From the NCBI GenBank assembly GCA_016213925.1, contig JACQZH010000007.1:30951-94950 (forward strand): DNA of 64,000 nucleotides, written 5' to 3'. Positions 298 to 58,809 of this stretch are shown in pieces. A program made the translations under genes and the position numbers. The first letter of the stretch is position 1, and every line of letters begins with the position of its first letter. This DNA comes from Candidatus Omnitrophota bacterium (lineage in GTDB: Bacteria; Omnitrophota; Gorgyraeia; B26-G9). The notes under the pieces were generated by a model. It did no database searches and had not been told where the DNA came from. It was given only the letters and a program-made list of their open reading frames with translations.

Positions 298-774
298 ATG
301 AATTCAAAAACAAAAGAATTATTAGCCTATCTTATTGAACATCATACCAAGGCTTCTGTTACAGTTCTAATGAAGTTATCTTACCTGATTGATCTAGTGA
401 GTACCAAGCGGGGTAAAGGGCAGATTTCCGACTTTACCTATAAGAGATATTTTTATGGCCCATTTGATGAACATATTTACCAAGCCCTTGCTTCATTGGT
501 AGAAGAAAATTTAGTACAAGGACAACCCGCATATAGTCCCGATGGGCAAGAGTTTATCACCTATTCTCGCGTTGGAGAAGAGAGTCCTTTACCTCTCCAG
601 CACTTGGATGATCAAGACATTGAAATCATTAATGATGTTTTAACCCAAGTCCAAGGATATGGGGCAAAAGCTCTCACCGATATTGCTTATAAAACTGTCC
701 CCATGAAGAAACTTGGCGCGACTCAAGGTGGATACGAAAATTTAAACGCCCAATTAAATTTGAACAGTGATTGA
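298..774 (+). CDS. Panacea-domain (DUF4065, SocA/GepA-like) protein, putative type II antitoxin.
   Basis: 158-aa ORF. Carries KLSYLIDLV ... YKRYFYGPFDEHIY, matching the Panacea/SocA signature (K-L-x-K-L-x-Y followed by aromatic-YGP-x-x-x-x-Y). Confidence 0.6.
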   Translation: MNSKTKELLAYLIEHHTKASVTVLMKLSYLIDLVSTKRGKGQISDFTYKRYFYGPFDEHIYQALASLVEENLVQGQPAYSPDGQEFITYSRVGEESPLPLQHLDDQDIEIINDVLTQVQGYGAKALTDIAYKTVPMKKLGATQGGYENLNAQLNLNSD

Positions 775-1276
775 CTTTCCTGACGACATATTAATTTCTA
801 TCATACAACCTCAAAACGCTCATTGCGATTTTACTTCTGTAGAACCGACAACTAATAAAAAGAAGAAGAAATATAAATTAGCCGGCAAAGTGATTCTTCA
901 GCCGTTAAATTTCTACCCGTTTTTTATTCTAACCTCGAATAAAAGTACTTGCCAAGAGTATTTAACCGTTTGCATTAAGCGAGAAGAATGGGCGGATAGA
1001 AATTCGACTCATCTTGCTGAAGAAAAGTCATATATCGATATAAAGAAAATAGAGACTTTGACCCAGGAAGAGATAATAGACAAAATGAGGGATCCTGACA
1101 ATGGGTTTCCTTGTATCGCAAAATTGTGCGATAAGAAATTTGAGGAAATAGCGGAGAAACGGAAGAACTTACATAAAGCGACCCGACTTTCATCCAAAAC
1201 ACAAGACATAATCAATGCAGCACTTTCAGAAGCAGATATAGCAAATAATATACTTAAAAATTTGTCCTTAGAATAA
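767..1276 (+). CDS. Hypothetical 169-aa protein overlapping the Panacea gene by 8 nt (ATGATTGA); candidate toxin partner (PanT-like) of unknown fold.
   Basis: ORF overlaps the upstream stop. Lys-rich, with no recognisable motif. Assignment rests on the operon arrangement with the Panacea antitoxin. Confidence 0.4.
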   Translation: MIDFPDDILISIIQPQNAHCDFTSVEPTTNKKKKKYKLAGKVILQPLNFYPFFILTSNKSTCQEYLTVCIKREEWADRNSTHLAEEKSYIDIKKIETLTQEEIIDKMRDPDNGFPCIAKLCDKKFEEIAEKRKNLHKATRLSSKTQDIINAALSEADIANNILKNLSLE

Positions 1277-4159: not shown

Positions 4160-5632
4160 TTGATTAAAAGTATGGATAAAAGTTTCCATAAGAGGTTATG
4201 CGAACTTGCCTGTCAGCAATCAATAATTTTTCCGGTGGTGTTTTTCGTAGCGGTAGAGCTTAGCAGTGTTTATTGCCGGCCTGCTTTTTCAGAGACATGG
4301 TCTTCTGCGGCCGATTCGGGCAAATGGCGTCTTATCTGGCATGACGAATTTGATGGAGAAACTGTTGATGTTTCCAAATGGCGCATTGAGGATGCGGCGC
4401 TGATTAAAAATAATGAACTGCAATATTATACCCCGGAAGATGTTTACATAGAAAACGGAATGCTTGTCCTGCGCAGTCAAAAAAGATTTATGCGGGGCAG
4501 AGGATACACGTCTGGTTTAGTGGAAACATCCGGCAAGGTTGCTTTTAAATACGGCCGCGTTGAAGTCAGGGCAAAGCTGCCGAAGGGAAAGGGGCTCTGG
4601 CCCGCGCATTGGATGCTGCCGCAAAGCGGAAAGTGGCCTCCGGAAATAGACATCACAGAATTGATCGGACACTCGCCGAACACGGTGCATATGACTTTGC
4701 ACTGGGGGCAGCGGCCGGAGCATAAGTTGCGCGGTACTTCATTTAGCGGGCCGGATTTTTCTGGGGATTTTCATGTATTTGCCATAGAATGGCAGCCTGA
4801 TTACATCCGCTGGTTCATTGATGGAGAAGAACGTTTTTTTATCGATGAAAATATTCCGCAAGAGCCTTTTTACATAATTTTAAACACTGCCGTAGGCGGC
4901 AATTGGCCCGGCGCTCCGAATAGCGCGACAAAATTTCCGCAATTTCACCAGATAGATTATGTAAGAGTTTACGCAAAAGAGATACCCGGAAAATTTTTCC
5001 TTACGAGCGCGGCAAAAAACGGCAGCATTGAAATTTCCCCCCAACAGCAGCAATATGATTTTAACAGTAAAGTAACTTTAAAAGCAAAGCCGGCAATCGG
5101 ATATATTTTTAGCTGCTTTAGCGGAGATTGTTCCGCGGAATATGACACCGTAGAGATCGTGATGGATAAACACAAAACCATCAGCGCGGATTTTATCGCG
5201 GATCCAGATCCGCCGGAACTTCTTTCCGCGGGAAAGCCGGTTAAGGCATCATCGCAGGAAGCAGAAGATCTTGGTGCGGAAAATGCAGTGGATAGGGATA
5301 AAAACACCCGCTGGTCTTCCGCGTTTTCAGATCCGCAGTGGATACAGGTTGACTTAGGGCAGAAATACTTGATCGATTCTGTGCGTCTGAACTGGGAGGC
5401 TGCGTATGCGCGTGGGTTTGAAATACAGGTTTCTGATGACGGAAAAAAGTGGAATACCGTATATGGTGAACAGCAAGGCAAGGGGAGTACTCAGGAAATA
5501 ACACAGTTAAACGCGGCTGGCAGGTATGTTGCAATATACGGCATAGAACGCGCTACAGAATTCGGGTATTCTTTGTGGGAATTTGAGGTTTTTGGGCGGT
5601 TTATCGAAACAGCTTCTGCGCAGGAGCCTTGA
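4160..5632 (+). CDS. Glycoside hydrolase family 16 (laminarinase/beta-glucanase-like) with C-terminal F5/8 type C (discoidin/CBM32-like) domain.
   Basis: GH16 catalytic motif EIDITE within WPPEIDITELIG; WHDEFDG near the N-terminus. The C-terminus has NTRWSS ... WIQVDLG discoidin-like motifs. A signal/TM region is present. Confidence 0.85.
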   Translation: MIKSMDKSFHKRLCELACQQSIIFPVVFFVAVELSSVYCRPAFSETWSSAADSGKWRLIWHDEFDGETVDVSKWRIEDAALIKNNELQYYTPEDVYIENGMLVLRSQKRFMRGRGYTSGLVETSGKVAFKYGRVEVRAKLPKGKGLWPAHWMLPQSGKWPPEIDITELIGHSPNTVHMTLHWGQRPEHKLRGTSFSGPDFSGDFHVFAIEWQPDYIRWFIDGEERFFIDENIPQEPFYIILNTAVGGNWPGAPNSATKFPQFHQIDYVRVYAKEIPGKFFLTSAAKNGSIEISPQQQQYDFNSKVTLKAKPAIGYIFSCFSGDCSAEYDTVEIVMDKHKTISADFIADPDPPELLSAGKPVKASSQEAEDLGAENAVDRDKNTRWSSAFSDPQWIQVDLGQKYLIDSVRLNWEAAYARGFEIQVSDDGKKWNTVYGEQQGKGSTQEITQLNAAGRYVAIYGIERATEFGYSLWEFEVFGRFIETASAQEP

Positions 5633-5691
5633 CATAAAAAGAATATTTAATTAGAATGCGATATAAAAAAAGCGCGAAAGGGTTAGATTTT

Positions 5692-6114
5692 ATGATAAAG
5701 AAAACAAAGATGCATTCGCCGCGTTTACCAGAAGCAAAAGTAGCATTTTCCCGCGGAATTAAAGTGGAACTGGATAATAGAATCATGTTATTTATTTCAG
5801 GCACTGCCAGCGTAACAGCTGACGGCAGCACAGCCCATGCGGGAGATTTTCACGCCCAGGCAATACATACTTATAAAAACATAAACTCCTTACTCAAGAA
5901 AGAGAACGCTGCGTTTAAAGATATTGTTAAATTCACAATATACCTTAAAAACATGGATGACTATGAGAAGATGAATAATGCCCGCGACGAATTTTTTCAA
6001 AGCATGGGTTTGTCCCGGGAAGAATTTCCGGCAAGCACATGCGTTGAAGCGCGCCTTTGCAGGGAAGATCTTTTAGTTGAAATCGAGGCAATTGCAATAA
6101 GAAAAAAGAAGTAA
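5692..6114 (+). CDS. RidA/YjgF/TdcF family (reactive intermediate deaminase) protein. Start chosen at the internal ATG 5692, which has an SD; the longest ORF starts at 5656.
   Basis: Family-typical length. ISGTASV and the C-terminal CVEARL ... VEIEAIA pattern match RidA. Confidence 0.7.
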   Translation: MIKKTKMHSPRLPEAKVAFSRGIKVELDNRIMLFISGTASVTADGSTAHAGDFHAQAIHTYKNINSLLKKENAAFKDIVKFTIYLKNMDDYEKMNNARDEFFQSMGLSREEFPASTCVEARLCREDLLVEIEAIAIRKKK

Positions 6115-6183: not shown

Positions 6184-6648
6184 TCATTGATAAGTTTCCG
6201 GGCGGCTGAATTTTTTCGCGAGAAAATCCGCGATGTCTTGAGCTTCATCCAGAGCAATCCAGGTAATTGCCTTTGCTTGTTCACGCAAGACAAGATTGTG
6301 CCATTGCGCTGCGGGTAATCTTAGAGAAGTGATTTTATCTAGAGGGTGGCATTCGGCGCATTTCTGCTTAAAAAGCTGTTCCGTATAATAAGCGTGAGTG
6401 TTGTTTATGTGAATTTTTATTTTGTCGGCATCTTTTTGGGAAAATCCATTTTTGTTTTTTCTGCGCATCCAATCTACTGTTTTATTCCAGCCGGTAGTTG
6501 TTTTTTTAATAACAAAAATTCTCTCTAATTTGTGGCATTTACCGCAAGTGTTTTCAAAGAGCGGAAAATTTTTATCCGCGTTTTTTGCTCCTGTGAGCAG
6601 GACAGAGAAGCAGAGAATGCTGATAATAAGAAGGTAAAATGGCTTCAT
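6184..6648 (-). CDS. Diheme c-type cytochrome with signal peptide.
   Basis: Two CxxCH motifs (CGKCH, CAECH) and an N-terminal hydrophobic signal. Confidence 0.6.
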   Translation of the reverse strand: MKPFYLLIISILCFSVLLTGAKNADKNFPLFENTCGKCHKLERIFVIKKTTTGWNKTVDWMRRKNKNGFSQKDADKIKIHINNTHAYYTEQLFKQKCAECHPLDKITSLRLPAAQWHNLVLREQAKAITWIALDEAQDIADFLAKKFSRPETYQ

Positions 6649-6649
6649 T

Positions 6650-9610
6650 TTAATTTAATATAAATCCTTGATTGCCGCGCAAGATAAATCTTTTTACAGC
6701 ATGCCTGGTTTTATCCGCAGTATCTGTTCCGGTTAAAAAAAACGTAAAAATTACGGTGTCTGCCATTTCTTGTGCCTGCGGATTGGTATAAGAAATAATA
6801 TCGTAATTAGGAAACTGAACCGCCGTGTCTTGCGGGGAAAAGGAGTAAGAAAATTTCTCGTTATTGACCTCTAGAATCCCCTCATCCATTATCATCCCCG
6901 GCATAATCACGGTATAATAAACCTTAGCGTGGCGTAAGGGAGTTTTTATTGCGCCCTTTATCCTTAAAATGTCAGTATAATTTATTGAGAATCGCGCGGG
7001 CAAGTTAAGTTCGAGAATGTCATTTGGCGCGGAAGGCTCAACAGCATAAACAAAATATTTTCCGTCTCTAGTGCCGGCAAAATCGCCTTTTTTGTCCTTA
7101 TAACGGCAATTTCCTTCAACAGTATAAACTCCGGGTTCTTGTATTGGTATTTCCGCGCCTTCAGCAGCGGACATTTTTGCCAGGCCTATTTTATTTGTGA
7201 TGCCTTTGAATTCATATTGTTTTCCGCCGGGTGTAGTTATTTTTTTTAAACATTTAACATTAGCGATAGGAGGAAAAATCATTGCTCCGGCGCTTAAAAT
7301 ATCGCCGGTTTCAAAAATCATTCCGGCCAAAGGCGTGCCGGCATCAAAAAGATAATGCTTGCGGCCGTTAATCTCGAAAATCGGTTCAGCTAGAGGCGCG
7401 GATACTCTATTAGCAAAAGAACCTTTTGGGATAACCACGCCCATAGAGGCATAGATTCCATATAAATTAATTCCTTTTTTTAGATCACGATAGACAACAC
7501 CGCCCAAAAATTCATAAATATCCTGCGGCAAATCCCCGTTATAACTGTTGTTGATTTGCTCTCCGGCAAAGTTTCCGCCGCTTTGCCAATACGTGTCTCC
7601 CATAGGATGAGTGTCTTGGCTGACCATAAATCTGGCAGTAAGGCCGGGGCGGATTGCGCTCATATAGGCATAGGAGTGTTTGTCTAAGAATTCAGGATAT
7701 CCTTGCGGCTGGTATCCGTTTGTTGTTGTGGAAAAAGGAGCGATTCCTTTTGTTATTCCCGGGAATAGATTTTCTTTACAGCGCATTGTCAGGATAGGAC
7801 GAATGCCATTGTCTCCGGAGAAAGTATTTGCGATATAGAGAATATCGCCGGAATAATATGGAAAAGGGAACAGGGTACAGCAGGTGTAATTATTAGACAT
7901 AGGATTGTTGACCGTCATGAGTTGCCCTTCATAATTGCTATTATCCCTTGGCCCGATATCAGCGTGTATATGGGTGGAAGGGGACGCGCCATGCACGATG
8001 AGCGGTGAGTTTTTGGGAGCAACAACAGAACCGCTTTTTTGGCTGCCCATCCAAAAATTACCCTGGCTATCCGTATAGAACGCTGTAATTGTGGAAAGAT
8101 ATTCTCCTGGGCAGTCAAAAATCATTTTTTCAAATTTTTCTTTCGGGTAAAAGTACCCGTAACGGTTAGCTGCTCCTTCGATAACAACTTTTTTTATATC
8201 CTGCTTGCTGGAATTTCTATAAAAGGCAATATCTACTTTTACCTTGGCTGGGCAAGGCGGATGGATGATGACCGACGGAGGATATCCATCGCCCACTTCA
8301 AACGGAGTGCCTGGCTTTACGCTGGTGGCAAAAGTTAAGCGGTTCGCAACCCACACTTCGTATGTTCCGCCGCCGGTATATGTATTGCCCCAAACATCAG
8401 AGATCCAGCCGGTTAATTCAATTGAGTATTTGCCTTGCAAGGAAAACTGATAGCCGAACTTATCGGAATTTGAAGAAGCCCCGGTCGTAGATTGGGATTG
8501 AAATTTTTCTGTGCCGAGAATATCTTTTGTCCCGTCAGGTTTTGTGACAACAACCGAAAGCTCGCCGGATTGATAATTTAAAGGAATAGGAGTTTGAAAA
8601 TCCCATTTTGATCCCTGCTCTAGTTTTAGAAGCGGTTTTGCGAACATAGTAGGGAAATCAGGTTCAAGGATATATTTTGTTGTTTCCTGAGGTGTTTTTA
8701 ACGGAGGAAGAATGAATTCAGCAGGGATAATATGCCGGGAATTAAATTGAAAATTATCCGCGTCTTCTTTCGCGACTACTCCTTGAGTGCCATTGCTGAA
8801 ATATTTTGTAAGCAGTGTCCAGATCATCTTTGGCATAACAGGATTGCCGACTTTGATTACCGGAAGGTACGAAGATGTCCTTAGAATTATAGATTGATCC
8901 CAGTCAGAATAAATAGACGATGTTTTAGCGTATAGAGGCAAAAAGTTTACCCGATGAAAATAGCGGTGTTTTTTACAGAGGGCGGTAATTTGAAAGCGGT
9001 AATACCCTTCGGGAAAATCGGTTTTTATAATATCCTGGAACTTAAAATTAGCCTGCAGTTCTTCAGCGTTGATTTTTAAATTTGATTTTGGCGCAAAAGC
9101 ATATTTATAAAATGGCGCAGAATTGCTGTATCCTGAAAACCGGTTTTCAGGGGCTAAAGAATCGATATATTCGACAAATTTTAAATCCTCATATTCTGTC
9201 GCGCTAAAGTCGTAGTTTTCAATGGGCAGTCCCGAGGGGGTTAATACTGTGGAATTATAGTTATTTGTGAATTGATGATAACGGCCTTGTTTATCAAAAA
9301 TTCTTTCCGCGCGTAAAAGGATATAAATGCCGTCAAGCTCCTTGATGACTTCAATGGCCTGCCTGGATTTTACTTGTAAGCGTACCTGTATTTCGATATT
9401 ATCATTAAAATTAAAATCGTTTTTGTTTATCGAGGTTTCAAAGCTTAATTCGCCATCGCCAAGAATTTTTTCCGAAAAATCAAAACAAACGGGATCAGCG
9501 AATAAGAATACAGGAGAGCTAATCAAGGCAAAACAGAGGACAGGAAAAACAAAAACCGTTAGAAAAAAGTTTTTTTTGATAAGCATGGCAATCTTTCTTA
9601 ATTTCCGCAA
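6650..9610 (-). CDS. Large (986 aa) secreted or membrane-anchored protein of unknown function, co-oriented with and abutting the diheme cytochrome c.
   Basis: Long intact ORF, N-terminal TM/signal, no recognisable catalytic motif. A 1-nt gap to the downstream cytochrome gene implies an operon. Confidence 0.55.
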   Translation of the reverse strand: MRKLRKIAMLIKKNFFLTVFVFPVLCFALISSPVFLFADPVCFDFSEKILGDGELSFETSINKNDFNFNDNIEIQVRLQVKSRQAIEVIKELDGIYILLRAERIFDKQGRYHQFTNNYNSTVLTPSGLPIENYDFSATEYEDLKFVEYIDSLAPENRFSGYSNSAPFYKYAFAPKSNLKINAEELQANFKFQDIIKTDFPEGYYRFQITALCKKHRYFHRVNFLPLYAKTSSIYSDWDQSIILRTSSYLPVIKVGNPVMPKMIWTLLTKYFSNGTQGVVAKEDADNFQFNSRHIIPAEFILPPLKTPQETTKYILEPDFPTMFAKPLLKLEQGSKWDFQTPIPLNYQSGELSVVVTKPDGTKDILGTEKFQSQSTTGASSNSDKFGYQFSLQGKYSIELTGWISDVWGNTYTGGGTYEVWVANRLTFATSVKPGTPFEVGDGYPPSVIIHPPCPAKVKVDIAFYRNSSKQDIKKVVIEGAANRYGYFYPKEKFEKMIFDCPGEYLSTITAFYTDSQGNFWMGSQKSGSVVAPKNSPLIVHGASPSTHIHADIGPRDNSNYEGQLMTVNNPMSNNYTCCTLFPFPYYSGDILYIANTFSGDNGIRPILTMRCKENLFPGITKGIAPFSTTTNGYQPQGYPEFLDKHSYAYMSAIRPGLTARFMVSQDTHPMGDTYWQSGGNFAGEQINNSYNGDLPQDIYEFLGGVVYRDLKKGINLYGIYASMGVVIPKGSFANRVSAPLAEPIFEINGRKHYLFDAGTPLAGMIFETGDILSAGAMIFPPIANVKCLKKITTPGGKQYEFKGITNKIGLAKMSAAEGAEIPIQEPGVYTVEGNCRYKDKKGDFAGTRDGKYFVYAVEPSAPNDILELNLPARFSINYTDILRIKGAIKTPLRHAKVYYTVIMPGMIMDEGILEVNNEKFSYSFSPQDTAVQFPNYDIISYTNPQAQEMADTVIFTFFLTGTDTADKTRHAVKRFILRGNQGFILN

Positions 9611-10176
9611 AATACCGGATATATGATATAATAATAAAAACTATTTTTCAACGGAGCATTTTTTTAGGGTTGAAAATAAAGAAATTCAGGCGAGAAAAGA
9701 AACTAGCGCTTATAAATAAAGGATAAAGATATCTCGCTCTAAAAACAGAGCTTGATATCCGCTCGATTTTCTACAAAAATCTCGCGGAGAGTTGGCAGAC
9801 GAAGCCCCGCAGATTTGTTCTGCGCAAGCAGAACGTTGCGGGAAAAACGGTTTATTCTTAATAAGGGTGATAAAAATTACATAACCATTTGTGGCGTAAA
9901 GTAATCGAAGAATTTTACGCTCAGCACCAATTTTTTCGCTGAAAAACAGCGCAACCGGTAAATCCATACTGTGTTTTTGGCGTGCTGGAACTCGCCCGTC
10001 GGCTTGCGCCAGATGGGCTTGAGACATCCATCGCGCCCAAAAGGGTACCCAAAAACACAGCATGTATTTACCTAAATTGGTGAATTCGCTTAAAAATTTT
10101 CGATTACTTTTGCAACTTAAATACGAAAGCGGAAAAACCGTTGGAATAAGGTGGATTGAAATGAAAGATAGTTAGC

Positions 10177-10266
10177 GGAGAGTTGGCAGAGCGGCCGAAT
10201 GCGGCGGTCTCGAAAACCGTTATCCGGGTAACTGGATCAGGGGTTCGAATCCTCTACTCTCCGCCA
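10177..10266 (+). tRNA. tRNA-Ser (anticodon CGA), class II with long variable arm, CCA encoded.
   Basis: Acceptor GGAGAGU/ACUCUCC, anticodon loop CUCGAAA, long variable arm, T-loop UUCGAAU, discriminator G + CCA. Confidence 0.85.
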
Positions 10267-10645: not shown

Positions 10646-11506
10646 ATGAATAAAGAAATAACCGCGACTAAAATAGCAATTTTCAGAAAACGCGAAATCC
10701 GCAGGACTATTCATAAGGATGAATGGTGGTTTTCAGTGATTGATATAGTAGAAGCGCTTACGGGCACTAATAGGGGTAGAAAATATTGGAGCGATCTTAA
10801 GAAAAAGCTTATTGAAGAAGGGTATAGTGAAGTGTCCGAAAAAATCGGACAGTTGAAAATGATAGCTCCAGCTGGGAAATTAAGGCTTACGGATTGCGCT
10901 AATACAGAAACAATGTTTCGCATAGTACAGTCTATCCCATCTCCGAAAGCCGAACCTTTTAAGCGGTGGTTGGCTCGGGTCGGTTACGAGCGAATTCAGG
11001 AAATTGAGCACCCAGAGCTTGCCACAAAAAGGACAAGGGCGTTATATAAGGCTAAAGGGTATAGCGATGAATGGATCGAGAAACGAATGCGTGGAATTGC
11101 TATCCGTGAGGAGTTAACTGAGCAGTGGCAGAAGCGCGGCATTAAAGAGAAAAAGGGATACGAAATATTGACCGCTGACATATCGAAAGCGACATTTGGC
11201 ATGACCCCATTGGCTTACAAGAAACACAAGGGGCTTAAGCGTGAAAATCTGCGGGATCACATGACTGATCTTGAACTTATCTTTTCAATGCTTGGTGAGG
11301 CATCAACGAAAGAGATCGCCATTAATAAAGATGCTCAAGGGTTTGGGGAGAACAAACAGGCGGCGTTTGAAGGCGGCGCTGTGGCTGGCAACGCAAGAAA
11401 AGAGCTTGAGCGCAAAAGCGGCAAAAGAGTTATTAGCAAAGAAAATTATAAAAGATTACCGCAGAATAAGAAGCTGTTAAGAGTGGATAGTAGTTTCGAC
11501 AAGTAG
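10646..11506 (+). CDS. Bro-N domain / DinD-like (DNA-damage-inducible protein D family, phage antirepressor-like) protein.
   Basis: N-terminal IRRTIHKDEWWFSVIDIVEAL ... YWSDL resembles the Bro-N/DinD pattern; the central KHKGLKRENLRDHMTDLEL resembles DinD. Confidence 0.55.
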   Translation: MNKEITATKIAIFRKREIRRTIHKDEWWFSVIDIVEALTGTNRGRKYWSDLKKKLIEEGYSEVSEKIGQLKMIAPAGKLRLTDCANTETMFRIVQSIPSPKAEPFKRWLARVGYERIQEIEHPELATKRTRALYKAKGYSDEWIEKRMRGIAIREELTEQWQKRGIKEKKGYEILTADISKATFGMTPLAYKKHKGLKRENLRDHMTDLELIFSMLGEASTKEIAINKDAQGFGENKQAAFEGGAVAGNARKELERKSGKRVISKENYKRLPQNKKLLRVDSSFDK

Positions 11507-30860: not shown

Positions 30861-33422
30861 ATGAGCCAAGAGTTTACCGGTAATGAAGCCCGGCAGAATG
30901 ACGGCGATTCCGGGCAGAATAAAGCGGATCAAACGCAGTGGATAAGCATAAAACGCCCGATGACAAAAGACGGGGTAATAAGCTCGTTTAAGGATAACCG
31001 CCAGTATTTTCTGGCGAAGGACCAATATTCCGCGACAAAATACGATAATTTTATGGCTATGGCCATGTCTATTCGCGATCGGCTCGTAGAACGGTGGATT
31101 CTTACCCAGCAGCGTTACCACCGGGAAAATTTAAAAAGAGTTTATTATCTTTCCATGGAGTTTTTAATCGGCCGCCTCTTGGCAAATAATATCTTAAACC
31201 TGGGGATTTGGGATGAATCGCTTCAGGCGCTTGAAGAAATTGGTTTTGATGCGGATACGCTATTAAACCAAGAACCGGACGCGGGATTGGGAAACGGCGG
31301 ATTAGGAAGGCTGGCTGCCTGTTTTCTTGATTCAATGGCAACGCTTGGAATTCCGGCGTACGGCTACGGTATAAGGTATGATTACGGGATTTTTCATCAA
31401 AAGATTATCGACGGATACCAGGTAGAATTGCCGGATGAGTGGCTTAAGCGCGGTAACCCCTGGGAATTTGCCAGGCCTGAATATACGGTCAAGGTACGTT
31501 TTTACGGGAAGACCCGCTCATTTCATGACCGCAACGGCAGATTAAGGGTTGTCTGGGCTGATACAAAAGATGTTCTTGCCGTCCCCTATGATTTTCCGGT
31601 GCCCGGATATAAAAATGATGTTGTAAATACCTTGCGCTTATGGTCAGCGCGCAGCGCAGAAGAGTTCGATTTTGAATATTTCAATGACGGGGATTATGAG
31701 CGCGCGGTGTATGACCAGGTTTTTTCAGAGAATATTTCAAAGGTGTTATATCCGAATGATATTATTATCCAGGGTAAAGAATTACGATTAAAACAGGAAT
31801 ATTTTTTTACGGCAGCCGCGATTTCGGATATTATCCGCAGGTTCAAGGCGGATAACTCTGATTTGCGCGTTTTTCCTGAAAAAGCGGTTATTCAGCTTAA
31901 TGATACTCATCCGTCTCTGGCCATTGTTGAGCTGATGCGTATTTTAATCGATGAAGAAGATATGGAATGGGACAGCGCCTGGAATATTGTATCCAGGTCA
32001 TTTGCTTATACAAACCATACAATTATGCCGGAAGCGCTGGAATCCTGGCCGGTTCCGTTGTTTGAGAAAATTTTGCCCAGGCATCTGCAATTGATTTATG
32101 AAATAAACCACCGGTTTTTAAGAGAGGTTGCCAACCGCTATCCCTGGGACCAGTTTAGGCTGGGGAGGATGTCTATAATAGAAGAAGGAGATCCTAAATA
32201 TATAAGAATGGCCTATCTTAGTATTGTCGCCAGTTATTCCATTAACGGGGTTTCTGCGCTGCATTCAAAGTTGATAAAAGAAACGCTTTTTAAGGATTTT
32301 CATGATTTATGGCCGGAAAAGTTCAATAATAAAACTAACGGAGTTACCCAGCGGCGCTGGTTAAGAAAAGCCAATACCGGCTTAGCGGGTTTGATAAGCA
32401 AAACAATTTCCGATAAATGGATAACGAACCTTAATGAACTGGAAAACCTGATGCAGCATATCGAAGACCCTTCCTTTAGAGAACAATGGCGGCAGGTTAA
32501 AGCGGAGAACAAAAAAAAGCTTTCCAATTATATCTTCCAAACACTGCATATACAGGTTAATCCAGAAGCGTTGTTTGATGTGCAGGTTAAAAGAATCCAT
32601 GAATATAAACGCCAGCTTTTGTTCGGGCTTTATATCATTTCCCAGTATTTGAAATTAAAAGATAACCCCAATGCCGGGATTCTGCCGCGGACATTTATTT
32701 TCGGCGGAAAATCAGCGCCGGGATATTTTATGGCAAAGCTGGCGATTAAATTTATCAGCCGGATTGCCGATATCATAAATAATGACAAGGGAGTAAAAGA
32801 TATTTTGCGGGTAGCTTTCCTGGAAAATTACAGTGTTTCTTTAGCGGAAAACATATTCCCTGGCAGCGATCTTTCCGAGCAGATATCAACAGCCGGAACC
32901 GAGGCGTCCGGGACGGGATGCATGAAGTTTATGCTTAACGGAGCGTTGACGATCGGTACCTTAGACGGGGCTAACATTGAAATAAAAGAAGCGGTTGGAA
33001 ATGAGAATCTTTTTATTTTCGGGTTAAGAGAATCGGAAGTGCAGGCGCTTAAACATGGAGGATATGACCCGAAACAATACATTAGCCGTTCACCGATGTT
33101 AAAAGAAGTGTTTTCTTTGATTCAGAGCCACTTCTTTTCACCGCTTGACCCGGATCTTTTTGACCCGATAATAGACAACTTGCTTCTAAAGGATCCGTTT
33201 ATGATTTGTGCGGATTTTGATTCTTACTGTCAGGCGCAGGATAGGGTTTCTTCGGAATACCGCAACTTGGATGTCTGGACAAAGAAATCGATTGTTAATA
33301 CCGCTAAGTCAGGAAAATTTTCCAGCGACCGCACAATTGCCGAATACGCCAAACAGATATGGGGCGTGCCGGTTAATCAAAAGCTTTGCGGGGAATTTTT
33401 GGGGTCGGGTCAAAACTATTGA
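30861..33422 (+). CDS. glgP: Glycogen/alpha-glucan phosphorylase. Start at 30861 preferred because of the SD AAGGAG.
   Basis: EASGTGCMKFMLNGALTIGTLDGANIE (PLP-Lys region); about 850 aa and family-typical throughout. Confidence 0.9.
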   Translation: MSQEFTGNEARQNDGDSGQNKADQTQWISIKRPMTKDGVISSFKDNRQYFLAKDQYSATKYDNFMAMAMSIRDRLVERWILTQQRYHRENLKRVYYLSMEFLIGRLLANNILNLGIWDESLQALEEIGFDADTLLNQEPDAGLGNGGLGRLAACFLDSMATLGIPAYGYGIRYDYGIFHQKIIDGYQVELPDEWLKRGNPWEFARPEYTVKVRFYGKTRSFHDRNGRLRVVWADTKDVLAVPYDFPVPGYKNDVVNTLRLWSARSAEEFDFEYFNDGDYERAVYDQVFSENISKVLYPNDIIIQGKELRLKQEYFFTAAAISDIIRRFKADNSDLRVFPEKAVIQLNDTHPSLAIVELMRILIDEEDMEWDSAWNIVSRSFAYTNHTIMPEALESWPVPLFEKILPRHLQLIYEINHRFLREVANRYPWDQFRLGRMSIIEEGDPKYIRMAYLSIVASYSINGVSALHSKLIKETLFKDFHDLWPEKFNNKTNGVTQRRWLRKANTGLAGLISKTISDKWITNLNELENLMQHIEDPSFREQWRQVKAENKKKLSNYIFQTLHIQVNPEALFDVQVKRIHEYKRQLLFGLYIISQYLKLKDNPNAGILPRTFIFGGKSAPGYFMAKLAIKFISRIADIINNDKGVKDILRVAFLENYSVSLAENIFPGSDLSEQISTAGTEASGTGCMKFMLNGALTIGTLDGANIEIKEAVGNENLFIFGLRESEVQALKHGGYDPKQYISRSPMLKEVFSLIQSHFFSPLDPDLFDPIIDNLLLKDPFMICADFDSYCQAQDRVSSEYRNLDVWTKKSIVNTAKSGKFSSDRTIAEYAKQIWGVPVNQKLCGEFLGSGQNY

Positions 33423-45229: not shown

Positions 45230-45763
45230 ATGAAAGTAAATAAAGCGGTTTTTGCCGGGATGTTGTTTGTGATGATATTATCTAATGTTGCGGGCCTAAA
45301 CGCGCAGGAAGACGCGGTTTTATATAATCATGCCAGGCAGGCGGTTTTAAGCGGGGAAATAGATTTTGCGTTCAATTATTTTTATTCGCTGCTGCAGTAT
45401 TCAGCATCGTCAAGATATTATCAAGATGCGGTTTTTGCCTGCGGAGAATATTATTTTTTAAATAATGATTACTATGTCTCCTCAAAGATGTTTACGGATT
45501 TTATTAAGGCTTGCCCGCAATCAGAAGCATTTCCTTTTGCGATTGTTTATTTGAAGAAAATGGCCGCTTCTTTAGAAGAAGCAAACGCGGCATATGATTT
45601 TAAAAAAAACATCATCAAATTTAAACAGTTAAGCCTGCTTTTTAGCGAGTTTAAGGAATATGAATATGTTTCTCCGTTAGGGTTAAAGTACAAAGCGTTA
45701 TATTATATCGACAGAGCGGAATTTTATATAAATGGGGAGCTGTTTGAAAAAGTATATTTCTAA
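45230..45763 (+). CDS. Secreted hypothetical protein.
   Basis: Signal peptide; Tyr/Phe-rich; no motif recognised. Confidence 0.45.
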   Translation: MKVNKAVFAGMLFVMILSNVAGLNAQEDAVLYNHARQAVLSGEIDFAFNYFYSLLQYSASSRYYQDAVFACGEYYFLNNDYYVSSKMFTDFIKACPQSEAFPFAIVYLKKMAASLEEANAAYDFKKNIIKFKQLSLLFSEFKEYEYVSPLGLKYKALYYIDRAEFYINGELFEKVYF

Positions 45764-47837
45764 GCATTTTTTTGTCCGAACGGCAATTGTTATTCTGCTT
45801 GCGCTGGTTATATCAGGTTATTTTTTCGTCAAGGTTTTCTTTTCGGAAAACAAAGCGAAGATAGAATATCTTTCAAGCAGTTATTTAAATAAAAAAATTT
45901 CAATAGGCAGTATTCAATATGTTTTGCCCGCATTCATTGTTATAAAAGACATCAGGATCGGCGAATTCGCAGAACAGGCTGAAGCCATCCCGCTTTCTAT
46001 AAAAAAAATCACCTTGGTTTTTTCATTAGAGAAGTTGTTTGCGGAAAAAGAATTGGTGATCAGCCGTATCGGCCTCTCCGAGCCAGAATTTGATTTGGTT
46101 AGATATCCGCTTTTTTTAAAGGAAAGCATTGCGGGATTTATTAAGTTAATAAATTTTCTTACCCAGGGCAACCCCTTAAAAATAGAATTGGAAAATGCCG
46201 CTTTTATTGCCGGCCACCGAGGGAATAAGCGCACGACGATAATAGCAAATTCAAAAATAGGCATAGGGCCGGACGACCGTTTTTCCAGCCGCGGAATAAT
46301 TAGCGTGCAGCAGGCAGGATGGAACTTTCCCGTCAAAGGGCATAAAATATTTGCGGCTTTTCAGCCTGGCACGTTTAGGTATTCTGTTTATGCTGCGGTT
46401 ATCCCCGAAGGAGTGGTTATTGAGGACATAGCGGTTGAGAAGGATAATCTACAGGCCAAATTTCAGGGCCGGCTTGAGAACAATGTGCTGCGGGTTACAG
46501 GGAATGTTTATTCAGATGATACGCCGGTAAAAACTCAAGAATGGTTAGCTCAAAAAAATAAACTTATAAGGCAGCTTTACGCATTATTTAAATATGGGAA
46601 ATTACCGCAAAAAATCGGACAAAGAGATGCCGGGGTTAACTGCACGGATATTGATTGCGTCCTCGAATTTGCGTCGCGGGCTGTAAATTTAAAAAAAGCT
46701 ACTTTTAATCTTAACGGAATCCCCGTGCTGGTAAATGGAGATTTTAATTTTCAGCAGGGCATGCAGCTTAAGGCCGTAGTTACGACTTTTCCGGAGCAGC
46801 CTTTTTTTGGCGCCGGTACTGATCCGCGCAAACTAGGGTTGGATATTTTTTTAAATGGCAAAGAGGGCAAAAGCACCGGGGACATCACGCTTGATTTTTT
46901 CAAAATGATGGGTAAAAATCTTTCGAAGCAGAAACTGCGGGCTGATTTTAATAACGCGGCTTTTGGCATTTCTCCGGATATGCGGATAAAATTGCTCTTT
47001 GATGAGGCGGTGGTTTTTTATGAATTCGATAAAAATGAGCATGTTTTTAAGCTGCGAAACTGGGAATTGTTATGTAATTTTCTTGACGAAAAACTTAAAT
47101 TCGTAAAATTCAACGCGGGAATTTTTGACGGGCTATTAAAAGGATATATTGTTGTAGATGCTTCAGAGCCCGGGTGGAAAACTAAACAGAATTTAACGGT
47201 AAAAGATGTTAACGCGAGCGAGCTGGATGCGCTGCTTTTATCTTTATTCGGCATGTACCGCACTTTACCGGGAAAATTTCAAGAAAAAATAAGCGGTAAG
47301 TTTACCTGCGATGTTAATTATACAGGGTTTCGCAGCTCAATATTAAACGGGAACCTGGAAATCAGTCAAGGTGTTTTGGAGAATATGCAGTTTTTTTTAT
47401 GGATATCCGGTTTTTTTAATATTCCTTCATTAGCCAGCGTAAGCTTTGATTCTCTTTCTGCAGATTTTCTTGTAACAGACAGGATTGCCCGGCTGGATAA
47501 CGTATGTTTGAGCGGAAAGGATATTTCGCTGAAAGGCCAGCTGGATGTTAGGGATAATGAGCTGATCAGCGGTAGGCTTGCTTTACGGCTTTCGCGCCAG
47601 ATACTTAAAGAATCATCAAAATTTCAGCTGCTTTTGGGGTTGATAAGCCATGATATAAAAGAATTTGATTTTAATTTTCAATTTTCCGGATTATATCAAT
47701 CAATAAATTTTCAATGGCTGGAATCCGAATTTAAGCACAAAGTACAAAAAATGCTTCCCGGGTTTATAGAACAGGGCTTGGAGCGAAAAGTTGAAAGTGC
47801 AATAAAAGAAATTTCCGGGCCGCTTGTTGAAAAATAA
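45732..47837 (+). CDS. Membrane-anchored AsmA-like protein (701 aa).
   Basis: N-terminal signal anchor followed by a long beta-rich region in AsmA/TamB style; low-specificity call. Confidence 0.45.
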   Translation: MGSCLKKYISKHFFVRTAIVILLALVISGYFFVKVFFSENKAKIEYLSSSYLNKKISIGSIQYVLPAFIVIKDIRIGEFAEQAEAIPLSIKKITLVFSLEKLFAEKELVISRIGLSEPEFDLVRYPLFLKESIAGFIKLINFLTQGNPLKIELENAAFIAGHRGNKRTTIIANSKIGIGPDDRFSSRGIISVQQAGWNFPVKGHKIFAAFQPGTFRYSVYAAVIPEGVVIEDIAVEKDNLQAKFQGRLENNVLRVTGNVYSDDTPVKTQEWLAQKNKLIRQLYALFKYGKLPQKIGQRDAGVNCTDIDCVLEFASRAVNLKKATFNLNGIPVLVNGDFNFQQGMQLKAVVTTFPEQPFFGAGTDPRKLGLDIFLNGKEGKSTGDITLDFFKMMGKNLSKQKLRADFNNAAFGISPDMRIKLLFDEAVVFYEFDKNEHVFKLRNWELLCNFLDEKLKFVKFNAGIFDGLLKGYIVVDASEPGWKTKQNLTVKDVNASELDALLLSLFGMYRTLPGKFQEKISGKFTCDVNYTGFRSSILNGNLEISQGVLENMQFFLWISGFFNIPSLASVSFDSLSADFLVTDRIARLDNVCLSGKDISLKGQLDVRDNELISGRLALRLSRQILKESSKFQLLLGLISHDIKEFDFNFQFSGLYQSINFQWLESEFKHKVQKMLPGFIEQGLERKVESAIKEISGPLVEK

Positions 47838-56382: not shown

Positions 56383-58809
56383 TTAGATGCTTTGTCCAAT
56401 CAGGGTTTGCTGAGTATTCAAATGCTGTTTAGTTATAGTAATATTAGCTGGAACGGCTTTTTGCAAAACAGCTGCGGGATTAGGCTGTTCAGCGGCAAAA
56501 GGTAAATAAATCGTAAAACATGACCCTTTCCCTTCTCCCTCGCTTGTTACTTCCATATATCCGTTCATTTTTTCAAGCAAAGGAAGCACTGAAGCTAAGC
56601 CGATTGCAGAGCCTTCGATCTGGGGGTTAGTTTCGGATTGGCCTAAACGGTCAAAGCGTTGCCCGACGCGGTAGAGATTTTCTTTGGCAATGCCAATACC
56701 GGTATCGGAAATACTGACGCTGATTACTTGATTATTATTCCGTGTTGAGGCCTCAAGCGCGGCTTTAACAGTGATTGTTCCTCCTTGAGGAGAATATTTA
56801 ACCGCGTTGCTTAACAGATTAAAAATAATGCGCCTAAACGCGTCTTCGTTAACAAAACCGGTTAGAGATTGTTTGATGTCAATATCCAAACTGAAATTTT
56901 TGGCAGACGCATATTCGATATGAGGCCGGTTCTGTTCGACGCATTCACTAAGCAACTGTGAAATATTTCCGGATTTTACGTTAAGCTGTGAAGTTGAGGC
57001 GTCCGGGGTATTTAATTTGCTGAAAAACGCATCATTAAGCTTTGATATCTTTGGCGATTCGTTTACTATGATCGTAATGTATTGTTTGATAGTTTCCGGC
57101 AGGGAGCTTGAAATAGATTCATCGCTTATAAGCGCTTCAAAAGCATTCACCGCATCTTGAAATTCAATAAAGGCTTTTTTGTATTCCGCGGCAAAATCAT
57201 AGAATATGCTTGAAGTTTGCCTGATCAGAAATTCTAATTTTTCTTCGCTGATTATCCTTAAAAGGTTTTCAAGTTGAGCGGTTGAAGTGAGGTATTCTTT
57301 TGCCGCGTGATATAAAGCTTCTTCCAAGAGCCCGATATTACGGTTTGTTTTAAAAAACGGCTTAGTTTGCGCGTGCAGCGCTTCAAGGATACGAAATGAG
57401 GATGCCTTAAGCAGATTTTTTTGCAATATCTGCCATACGGATAAAATTTCTTCTTCCGAAGCTGATTCGTTTTGCAGGTGCTCCGGAAGCAGTGCGATTG
57501 TTTCCTGCGCAGCAGCGGATTCTTTTAATTCAGGAGAATCTTTTGCCGGAGATTCTTCAGAAAGCTCCTTAAGTTTTTGTTCGAAATCATGGATCAACTG
57601 TTTAAGATTTAATAAAAAAGAACGCTCCTGTTTGGCAGCGTGAAATAGCCCGAACATCGGCAGTAAGATACTGATTTTTTTTTCAAAGCTTTTAATGGAG
57701 TTTTCTAAAATAACAGCTTTTTCCTTGATTAAAACGCAGGCAGTTTTGACTTTTTCAAGTTCAGGATTTTCCGCGAGGTTTTCGGTGGTAATTTTTCTAT
57801 TTGTCCTGTCGGCAAACCCGGCAGTAACAATTAACGGGTTTTTTGTATCATGCAGGAACGCTTCTGCTTCAAATAATGTGCTGATAGCGTGCAGTTGTCT
57901 TAATTTATCGTCTAAGCCCATAGTTGAATAAGCAAGCTCCTTTTTTGCGCGTAAAAGCTGAAGCGCAAGGCCGGTTTGATCGGAAATTGCCTGCAAGAGA
58001 ATAAGTTTTTCTTTCTTTGCCTGTTCGTTTTCAAACAAGGCTTCTCCTGTTTTCCAATTGTTAATAAGTATTTGCGCTATGGGGGAGTCGTTTTTATCCA
58101 GAACCGCAAAATGAAGAGATTCGTTTACGCGGTTAAGCCAGTCCGGGCGTATTTTCCCGACAAGCCAGATCCCCAATTTTGCGGGATAAACGCAGAAGGG
58201 AATAGAAAAATCGATAAAAGAAAAAATCGCTTTGCGGAAAAATGAGGATGACTCAAACCGGTATAAAAATATGTCCTTAAAAAGCCAGGGAGTGTATACA
58301 TCGGTGCTTTCGCTTCTTTTTTTAATGTGAAGATAAGGCGATTCTCTGCGGGCATTTTTTAAGTTATTAATTTTTTCGTCATTATCCGGCAAAGGGCTCC
58401 AGCTTACCTGCCAGCGCCTTCCTCCTTTCATGCCGTGGCGCAGAACTGTGCGTAAAGAAAATCCATTCCCCATGGGTTCGTGTTTTTTTACGATATAAAA
58501 GGCAACTCCCTTAAAACCTAATATCCGTGTGATATAATCTTTAACCAGGTCGGCAACCTGTTCTTCATTCTCAGCCTGAAGCAGCCAACCGCTTAATTGG
58601 GAAAGATGTTCATACTGGTTTTTTGACGATGGAATCCTACTGCTGTAAATAGAGGCAAAGGTATCTTTATACGTATTTGTCTTCAGGTTTAATTCCGGGG
58701 AAAGGCAGTATTTTTGCCAAGAGGCGTTTGCTCCGGCAAAACAATCCGCTGCGATTGACTGAACAATAAAGGCGCTGACAACAAATAAAGTTAAAATTTT
58801 TATTTTCAT
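56383..58809 (-). CDS. Sensor histidine kinase with a large N-terminal extracytoplasmic/sensor region.
   Basis: H-box LHDTKNPL, N-box FNLLSNAVKYS, G1 ISDTGIGI, and a signal peptide. Confidence 0.8.
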   Translation of the reverse strand: MKIKILTLFVVSAFIVQSIAADCFAGANASWQKYCLSPELNLKTNTYKDTFASIYSSRIPSSKNQYEHLSQLSGWLLQAENEEQVADLVKDYITRILGFKGVAFYIVKKHEPMGNGFSLRTVLRHGMKGGRRWQVSWSPLPDNDEKINNLKNARRESPYLHIKKRSESTDVYTPWLFKDIFLYRFESSSFFRKAIFSFIDFSIPFCVYPAKLGIWLVGKIRPDWLNRVNESLHFAVLDKNDSPIAQILINNWKTGEALFENEQAKKEKLILLQAISDQTGLALQLLRAKKELAYSTMGLDDKLRQLHAISTLFEAEAFLHDTKNPLIVTAGFADRTNRKITTENLAENPELEKVKTACVLIKEKAVILENSIKSFEKKISILLPMFGLFHAAKQERSFLLNLKQLIHDFEQKLKELSEESPAKDSPELKESAAAQETIALLPEHLQNESASEEEILSVWQILQKNLLKASSFRILEALHAQTKPFFKTNRNIGLLEEALYHAAKEYLTSTAQLENLLRIISEEKLEFLIRQTSSIFYDFAAEYKKAFIEFQDAVNAFEALISDESISSSLPETIKQYITIIVNESPKISKLNDAFFSKLNTPDASTSQLNVKSGNISQLLSECVEQNRPHIEYASAKNFSLDIDIKQSLTGFVNEDAFRRIIFNLLSNAVKYSPQGGTITVKAALEASTRNNNQVISVSISDTGIGIAKENLYRVGQRFDRLGQSETNPQIEGSAIGLASVLPLLEKMNGYMEVTSEGEGKGSCFTIYLPFAAEQPNPAAVLQKAVPANITITKQHLNTQQTLIGQSI

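Follow-up and report, generated by a model that had tools for sequence, protein, structure and literature searches.

A widespread family of large exported proteins genetically coupled to exchangeable c-type haem proteins in uncultured bacteria

The stretch of DNA analysed here, 64,000 nucleotides long and called the window in what follows, belongs to contig JACQZH010000007.1 of a Candidatus Omnitrophota bacterium (positions 30,951 to 94,950 of the forward strand) and carries on its minus strand two adjacent genes, one encoding a large exported protein that we call BIG and the other a small di-haem cytochrome c. Both open reading frames (ORFs) had been pointed out in the initial annotation, as a 986-aa exported protein followed after a 1-nt gap by a secreted cytochrome with two CxxCH motifs, and both were confirmed on that strand. 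The mechanically delimited ORF of BIG extends over 6650..9610 (minus strand) from a TTG start and counts 986 aa, and the GenBank protein HY810_01035, described as a hypothetical protein of a Candidatus Omnitrophica metagenome-assembled genome (MAG), has 978 aa and begins with an ATG at 9586. A promoter-like site, TTGAAA-17-TATCAT, recognised by consensus match only, is located upstream at 9623..9651 on the minus strand and leaves only ~6 nt before the TTG, which weakly favours the ATG as the start of translation. Throughout this text BIG denotes the 978-aa product of the gene at 6650..9586 (minus strand, stop codon included), 100% identical to the GenBank protein. Its first 30 residues (MLIKKNFFLTVFVFPVLCFALISSPVFLFA, 9497..9586, minus strand) resemble a signal peptide, and residues 9-21, within this stretch, form a low-confidence helix in the AlphaFold model. 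To judge from the sequence, a hydrophobic signal-like segment opens the cytochrome as well. The cytochrome gene (6184..6648, minus strand; GenBank HY810_01030) lies downstream, starts with ATG and encodes a probably exported protein of 154 aa. The junction between both genes reads TAA-a-ATG, and AAGGA, a ribosome-binding sequence located within the 3' end of BIG, precedes the cytochrome start codon by ~16 nt. This arrangement, with its 1-nt gap, fits the translational coupling of BIG and the cytochrome.

The cytochrome consists of two haem units. The first contains the motif CGKCH (residues 35-39; 6532..6546, minus strand) followed by W..TV.WM, so that a Met is available as sixth ligand, while the second contains CAECH (residues 97-101; 6346..6360, minus strand) with the Met position replaced (W..LV.REQAKAITWI). 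The protein passes the Pfam gathering threshold for PF09098 (28.6 bits vs 25.2), the haem-binding domain of the alpha subunit of quinohaemoprotein amine dehydrogenase (QHNDH), and gave no match to PF03150 (CCP_MauG). An alignment of 43 haem units, taken from the partners of BIG and from natural fusions, yielded the common pattern C..CH...W..(T)V..M and placed the second unit of the window protein in a conserved variant, W..LV.RE[QR]AKA[IV][TS]WI.LDEA.DI, which is devoid of the Met presumed to serve as axial ligand. The closest relatives of the cytochrome (217-231 aa) have three haem units and the window protein only two; since just ~70 nt separate its stop codon from the convergent RidA gene, the third unit has been either lost here or gained elsewhere. 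A word-based homologue search with the cytochrome returned 2 matches only. The protein is thus built from a type of domain already known, of which it is a new representative. A second CxxCH-containing ORF of the window (57311-57640, plus strand) is spurious, as it lies inside a histidine-kinase gene of the minus strand.

BIG is far from being alone. A word-indexed search of a library clustered at 90% identity retrieved 75 clusters, every one of them labelled hypothetical, in which the Omnitrophota members are 50-60% identical to BIG and those from Chloroflexota, Myxococcota and related groups 25-31%. A profile search of the library clustered at 50% identity extended the family to 1627 cluster representatives at E<=1e-3, 565 of them at E<=1e-30, whose sources are uncultured Chloroflexota, Omnitrophota, Acidobacteriota and Thermodesulfobacteriota. 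The description of BIG as an orphan in the initial annotation does not hold, therefore, as regards homologues, though it stands as regards any annotation. Neither Pfam nor NCBIfam contains a model that matches BIG, the sole trace being a sub-threshold hit to Reg_prop (15.3 bits vs 20.4); a Pfam scan of 17 family members found no domain in common, the BIG profile matched no sequence of the PDB, and no account of the family came to light in the literature open to searching. Additional domains occurring in relatives of BIG comprise CarboxypepD_reg, FG-GAP, the InlB B-repeat and DUF5719. A degenerate DNA pattern representing GGGTY..A..PGTPF, the family signature, was also run over the GTDB species genomes, and hmmsearch confirmed all the 107 stretches that it matched as true members of the family. 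These loci come mostly from Anaerolineae and Aggregatilineales, with others from Thermoanaerobaculia/Acidobacteriota, Omnitrophota and Thermodesulfobacteriota, and their record titles indicate a MAG in all cases but one, locus L055, 'Anaerolineae bacterium CFX8', a title that names no cultured species either. A hydrophobic N-terminus in 64 of 72 members indicates that the family is exported. Tandem paralogues of BIG are frequent (L015, L021, L025, L036, L054, L060, L106 and L116), a fact that suggests hetero-oligomers or sub-functionalisation.

The AlphaFold model of BIG, built on an alignment of 75 sequences, is all-beta and of high confidence (pLDDT 90.1, pTM 0.90). According to this model, BIG is a compact array of about seven predicted beta-sandwich domains together with a loop-rich core. 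Foldseek searches retrieved generic beta-sandwich arrays only, of Ig- or MG-like type, the structural resemblances being limited to MG-domain arrays, Ig/fn3 chains and S-layer proteins, and no propeller relatives were found. The top matches were complement C3/C4/C5 and bacterial alpha-2-macroglobulins, with TM-scores of ~0.1, and titin and cytokine receptors scored about equally, which identifies the macroglobulin matches as those of a generic sandwich array. BIG matches no known non-redox family. A separate model of residues 530-775 revealed no hidden catalytic fold.

Three of the sandwich domains are homologous repeats. Repeat D3 (residues 336-425; 8312..8581, minus strand) bears the signature D-x-W-G-N-x-Y-x-GGGTYEVWVA, with GGGTY at 8360-8374, and D4 (residues 426-535; 7982..8311, minus strand) the motifs PGTPF, ANRxGYF, PGEY and YTDxxGxxW. 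Profile-profile comparison with hhalign related both to D6 (residues 772-862; 7001..7273, minus strand), with a probability of 91% and an E-value of 1e-6 for D3 and of 98% and 2e-13 for D4. This homology implies that ANRxGYF, PGEY and DxxGNx[YW] are hallmarks of the fold, not catalytic residues. Conserved positions outside the repeats include E274, D275, R284 and E308, followed within the loop-rich core D5 (residues 536-771; 7274..7981, minus strand) by D581, Y639, Y641, R646, W667, D685, D689 and Y712; Q677 and R727 are further non-repeat conserved residues of D5. Across the 75 family sequences, the polar and aromatic residues conserved at >=75% are D, E, Y, W, R, N, Q, S and T, and not a single His, Cys, Met or Lys reaches that level. 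No haem, copper, iron-sulfur, flavin, pterin or PQQ (pyrroloquinoline quinone) site of known type is visible in BIG, so the check for cofactor-binding motifs came out negative. With no conserved H, C, M or K, a fold of Ig/MG-like sandwiches only and part of the conservation explained as a repeat hallmark, the proposal of the initial annotation that BIG itself is a redox enzyme finds no support in these data.

What does distinguish the family is its linkage to haem proteins. The linkage was counted from the BIG side, in genome loci that had been fetched as fixed 8-kb blocks, many of which are uninformative for neighbourhood. For 52 family genes, 2 kb or more of sequence is available downstream. 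In 41 of these cases the next gene on the same strand encodes a haem-c protein; among the remainder, two have a convergent haem-c gene, one is fused, five are followed by a tandem paralogue and three have none. Overall, haem linkage amounts to 44/52, about 85% of the informative loci, compared with a background of 2 out of 491 ORFs with two or more CxxCH motifs (ORFs of >=150 aa taken from the same loci, at a distance of >700 nt from a family gene). In each of the six Omnitrophota genomes examined, namely the window and five others, BIG is followed by a cytochrome of the window's type with two or three haems, and a haem-c gene also adjoins BIG in the distant relatives of 25-31% identity. Homologues of both genes are co-localised elsewhere. 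Neither half of the refutation proposed in the initial annotation, a match of BIG to a known non-redox family and a lack of co-localisation of the homologues, is thus borne out. The earlier idea of a functional extracytoplasmic electron-transfer pair gains strong support from a neighbourhood and from fusions that are conserved across phyla.

Four types of haem partner occur. One is a small PF09098-type cytochrome with 2-4 haems; another, the commonest in Chloroflexota, combines in 600 aa a YVTN beta-propeller and a CCP_MauG di-haem domain; the third is a 535-aa five-haem protein, and in the fourth, of 1135 aa, the propeller-CCP_MauG and five-haem proteins are fused. In some distant relatives the neighbour is a membrane-anchored tri-haem cytochrome. 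In the Chloroflexota propeller-CCP_MauG partner the inter-haem Trp and the Ca-site Asn are retained, and an invariant His takes the position that is occupied by Met in bacterial cytochrome c peroxidases and by Tyr in MauG. A CuZ-like site in its propeller was considered and discarded, as only one His is conserved. Four natural fusions of three architectures join BIG directly to haem domains, with three C-terminal haem units in P0017 and P0018, three N-terminal PF09098 haem units in P0201, and a beta-propeller plus CCP_MauG in P0194. A BIG homologue of a Thermodesulfobacteriota MAG (L053, 1263-4562, minus strand) has an N-terminal extension that contains CLANCH, which may be a CX3CH haem motif and hence denote another kind of fusion. 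In L002 and L005, the small ORFs that follow BIG were considered as peptides resembling the gamma subunit of QHNDH and discarded, since they encode Cys-free two-helix membrane proteins.

In 24 Chloroflexota loci (L003, L016, L022 and 21 more) the pair stands in a larger constant arrangement, in which a divergent gene for a CheR-like methyltransferase with TPR repeats precedes BIG, the propeller-CCP_MauG gene and, directly downstream on the same strand, a gene for a DtxR/FeoA-type regulator.

BIG and its neighbour form a conserved and genetically coupled pair with export signals, in which the type of partner is exchangeable, and BIG lacks any recognisable cofactor site or catalytic fold. It is very likely that the two proteins work together. 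The explanation that we tentatively prefer, giving it slightly less than an even chance of being right, is that BIG constitutes the non-haem docking and substrate-binding part of a periplasmic electron-transfer module with an exchangeable haem partner. According to this proposal, BIG and the cytochrome would form one translationally coupled operon encoding a periplasmic two-protein module, BIG being the constant non-haem component and the haem protein the interchangeable one. Devoid of a recognisable redox cofactor, BIG would most likely serve as a platform for docking and substrate binding, and electron transfer would be carried out by the c-type haems of the partner. In this Omnitrophota genome, that partner would be the small cytochrome c with its two QHNDH-alpha-type units, which could shuttle electrons between a species bound to BIG and the remaining periplasmic electron-transfer chain. 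We infer here a physical complex of BIG and the cytochrome, as well as the direction in which electrons flow and the identity of what BIG binds. As a low-confidence guess, the bound species might be Fe, Mn or another redox-active cation, or a small organic molecule with redox activity, to judge from the set of hard-ligand residues conserved in BIG and from the DtxR-type regulator of the Chloroflexota operons.

Several points weigh against the docking platform. The conserved residues of BIG may represent one haem-facing pocket, but may also be dispersed over the protein and serve its structure or the binding of Ca. In the most frequent case the partner is an enzyme of the peroxidase/MauG type and not a simple carrier, so BIG could be the target of its partner instead of a platform. 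The association with the DtxR-type regulator may reflect lineage synteny within Anaerolineae, and such a regulator is absent from the 64-kb window, as are cytochrome-maturation and respiratory genes; the window holds mostly housekeeping genes and no other cytochrome. Furthermore, a true catalytic subunit would be expected to show a constant core and exchangeable redox partners too, as occurs with dehydrogenases and their cytochromes, and this favours an enzymatic function.

In that case BIG itself would be a new redox enzyme, with a cofactor invisible to motif searches and the haem protein as electron acceptor or donor. The cofactor might be a protein-derived quinone formed from the invariant Y409, Y496, W512, Y639, Y641 or W667, or else a metal or an organic cofactor bound through Asp, Glu, Tyr and Arg, and a MauG-like partner, where present, would also mature it. 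The membership of the commonest partner in the CCP_MauG superfamily, the haem units of quinohaemoprotein type and the compactness of the BIG fold (pTM 0.90) agree with this possibility, and so does the near invariance of the non-repeat polar and aromatic residues in a family of 25% overall identity. Nevertheless, no known catalytic fold was found in BIG, the lack of conserved Cys or Lys makes cofactors of the cysteine tryptophylquinone (CTQ) or lysine tyrosylquinone type unlikely, and the Omnitrophota loci, window included, have no MauG-like or other maturation gene nearby. Besides, many of the invariant positions are Gly, Pro, Asp, Tyr and Trp, typical of structural conservation in sandwich repeats, and on balance we consider an enzymatic BIG unlikely.

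A wider proposal would see in BIG a new class of extracytoplasmic redox protein, either an enzyme with a Tyr/Trp-derived cofactor or a carboxylate/tyrosinate-bound metal, or a substrate-presenting subunit that turns c-type haem proteins (cytochromes, MauG/CCP-like and multi-haem proteins) into a new oxidoreductase of many uncultured Chloroflexota, Omnitrophota and Acidobacteriota; we regard it as conceivable, though doubtful.

Rather unlikely, in our estimation, is that BIG is a structural scaffold of the envelope or surface, which would recall an S-layer or a macroglobulin-like sheath, lack any specific site for small molecules and anchor or protect haem proteins devoted to extracellular or periplasmic electron exchange or to peroxide defence. 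Such a function would suit the structural resemblances, confined as they are to MG arrays, Ig/fn3 and S-layer proteins, the extra domains of its relatives, which are typical of surface proteins, the common tandem paralogues and the membrane-anchored or multi-haem nature of some partners. However, scaffold and surface-layer proteins usually diverge fast, whereas the BIG family retains a fixed core of ~950 aa and near-invariant polar residues across phyla; the model of BIG is globular and not an extended chain, and no anchoring motif was seen in the BIG of the window. That the adjacency is incidental and BIG an adhesin or an alpha-2-macroglobulin-like protease trap unrelated to the cytochrome is highly improbable despite the identity of the top Foldseek matches, because their scores are those of a generic sandwich array, BIG has neither the CxEQ motif nor a helical thioester domain, and the neighbourhood and fusion statistics (44/52 and four independent fusions) rule out chance.

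Immediately downstream of the pair, and convergent with it, a gene of the RidA/YjgF family occupies 5656..6114 on the plus strand; its product has no signal peptide. This gene is a persistent neighbour whose membership in the module is uncertain. It shows the same position and orientation in all the six Omnitrophota genomes (the window, L001, L029, L105, L116 and L117), even where other neighbours differ, and in L053 a 47%-identical RidA lies on the same strand as the pair; there RidA comes first, a four-haem cytochrome second and BIG third, and the ORFs overlap. Beyond RidA, at 4160-5632 (plus strand), the window encodes a GH16 protein that carries a discoidin (F5/8 type C) domain. Its synteny with RidA and the pair holds for four of the six genomes (the window, L001, L029 and L105, not L116 and L117). 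Outside Chloroflexota, several loci (L005, L007 and L116) have around them numerous genes for radical-SAM and B12-binding radical-SAM proteins as well as small ORFs 31-33 aa long, which may be a coincidence in genomes rich in radical-SAM genes.

On the other side of BIG, in the region 9784-10190, the 16-nt sequence GCGGAGAGTTGGCAGA is repeated exactly and in direct orientation (9784-9799 and 10175-10190), and its second copy is the 5' end of a tRNA-Ser(cga) gene. Nested inverted repeats between both copies form a hairpin of ~229 nt (9890-10118; -97 kcal/mol, z = -10.3) that no shuffled sequence equals in folding; it has no match in Rfam and its arms occur nowhere else in the window. The hairpin may be what is left of an element inserted next to the tRNA gene, or else a structured RNA. 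Just after the tRNA gene lies an ORF with a BRO-N domain (10646-11506, plus strand), and at 298-1276 (plus strand) a SocA/Panacea antitoxin-like ORF is followed by an overlapping 169-aa ORF without family match; the SocA/Panacea-like and BRO-N ORFs hint at mobile or defence-related DNA flanking the region. Elsewhere in the window, an ORF of 701 aa (45732-47837, plus strand) has no Pfam match at E<=1e-5.

That an exported protein should have a c-type cytochrome of its own as dedicated partner is a familiar arrangement, and in this regard the pair follows a known logic. The novelty resides in the non-haem part, a large and widespread family (1627 representatives at 50% identity) without a characterised member, a library model or a structural relative, and found so far only in uncultured lineages. 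Its tight linkage to haem proteins offers a testable handle on microbial dark matter, since the family probably participates in the periplasmic or extracellular redox chemistry of Chloroflexota and Omnitrophota from groundwater, wastewater and marine environments. Should BIG be catalytic, it would represent a new enzyme fold and a new cofactor solution; should it be a platform, it would illustrate the recruitment of unrelated haem modules to one binding scaffold.

When compared with known systems, BIG failed every membership test run, those of QHNDH, alpha-2-macroglobulin, propeller dehydrogenases, copper enzymes and SorAB. It differs from alpha-2-macroglobulin and complement C3 in that the CxEQ thioester motif is absent from its sequence, the all-beta model has no helical thioester domain, a bait region is lacking and global superposition on the MG ring fails, with a TM-score of ~0.1. 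PQQ-dependent and other beta-propeller dehydrogenases were rejected as well, as nothing beyond the sub-threshold Reg_prop hit and no propeller relatives connected BIG with them, and the conservation pattern of the 75 sequences, with no His, Cys or Met at >=75%, excludes a copper oxidoreductase such as a multicopper oxidase, a lytic polysaccharide monooxygenase or an amine oxidase. The sulfite dehydrogenase SorAB resembles the pair in its genetic logic, the gene of an exported non-haem subunit preceding that of a small cytochrome c, and the cytochrome gives a weak SorB-like match (NF052246), but this match reaches 33.7 bits vs a cut-off of 93, no molybdoenzyme or SorA neighbour exists in the window, and BIG has neither a molybdopterin fold nor that of any other known cofactor.

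Other likenesses concern the partners found in relatives of BIG. The domain architecture of the commonest one, a propeller plus a CCP-like di-haem domain, recalls that of hydrazine synthase beta-gamma and gives weak matches to NF052340 and NF052342; these reach 62-70 bits vs cut-offs of 560-1250, BIG has no haem motifs, unlike the alpha subunit of hydrazine synthase, and the likeness does not extend to the window's own partner. Di-haem enzymes of the CCP/MauG type are known to operate with a dedicated neighbour protein, as in the cases of MauG and pre-methylamine dehydrogenase, MbnH and MbnP, and BthA. The latter always adjoins a partner protein of unknown function (PMC6405878). In most of the BIG family, likewise, the neighbouring gene encodes a CCP_MauG di-haem domain, although PF03150 was matched only in the Chloroflexota relatives and not in the window partner, the Chloroflexota protein is fused to a YVTN propeller and has the invariant His in place of Met or Tyr, and BIG is unrelated to the known targets of these enzymes.

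For the pair of the window itself, a close parallel is provided by QhpA (PF09098, TIGR03908), a periplasmic protein in which a di-haem c domain is combined with beta-barrel domains. The differences are clear, since the cytochrome has 154 aa and scores 34.1 bits vs a cut-off of 274 for TIGR03908, the full-length alpha subunit having ~500 aa, and BIG is about twice the size of the beta part of QhpA, with no detectable sequence relation to it; moreover, neither a gamma subunit (the one with CTQ), nor a beta propeller, nor a QhpD-type radical-SAM maturase gene occurs among the window neighbours. Even so, the haem units of the window cytochrome are of the same domain type as those of QhpA, and the fusions P0201 and P0018 recreate within a single polypeptide its layout of haem units and beta array.

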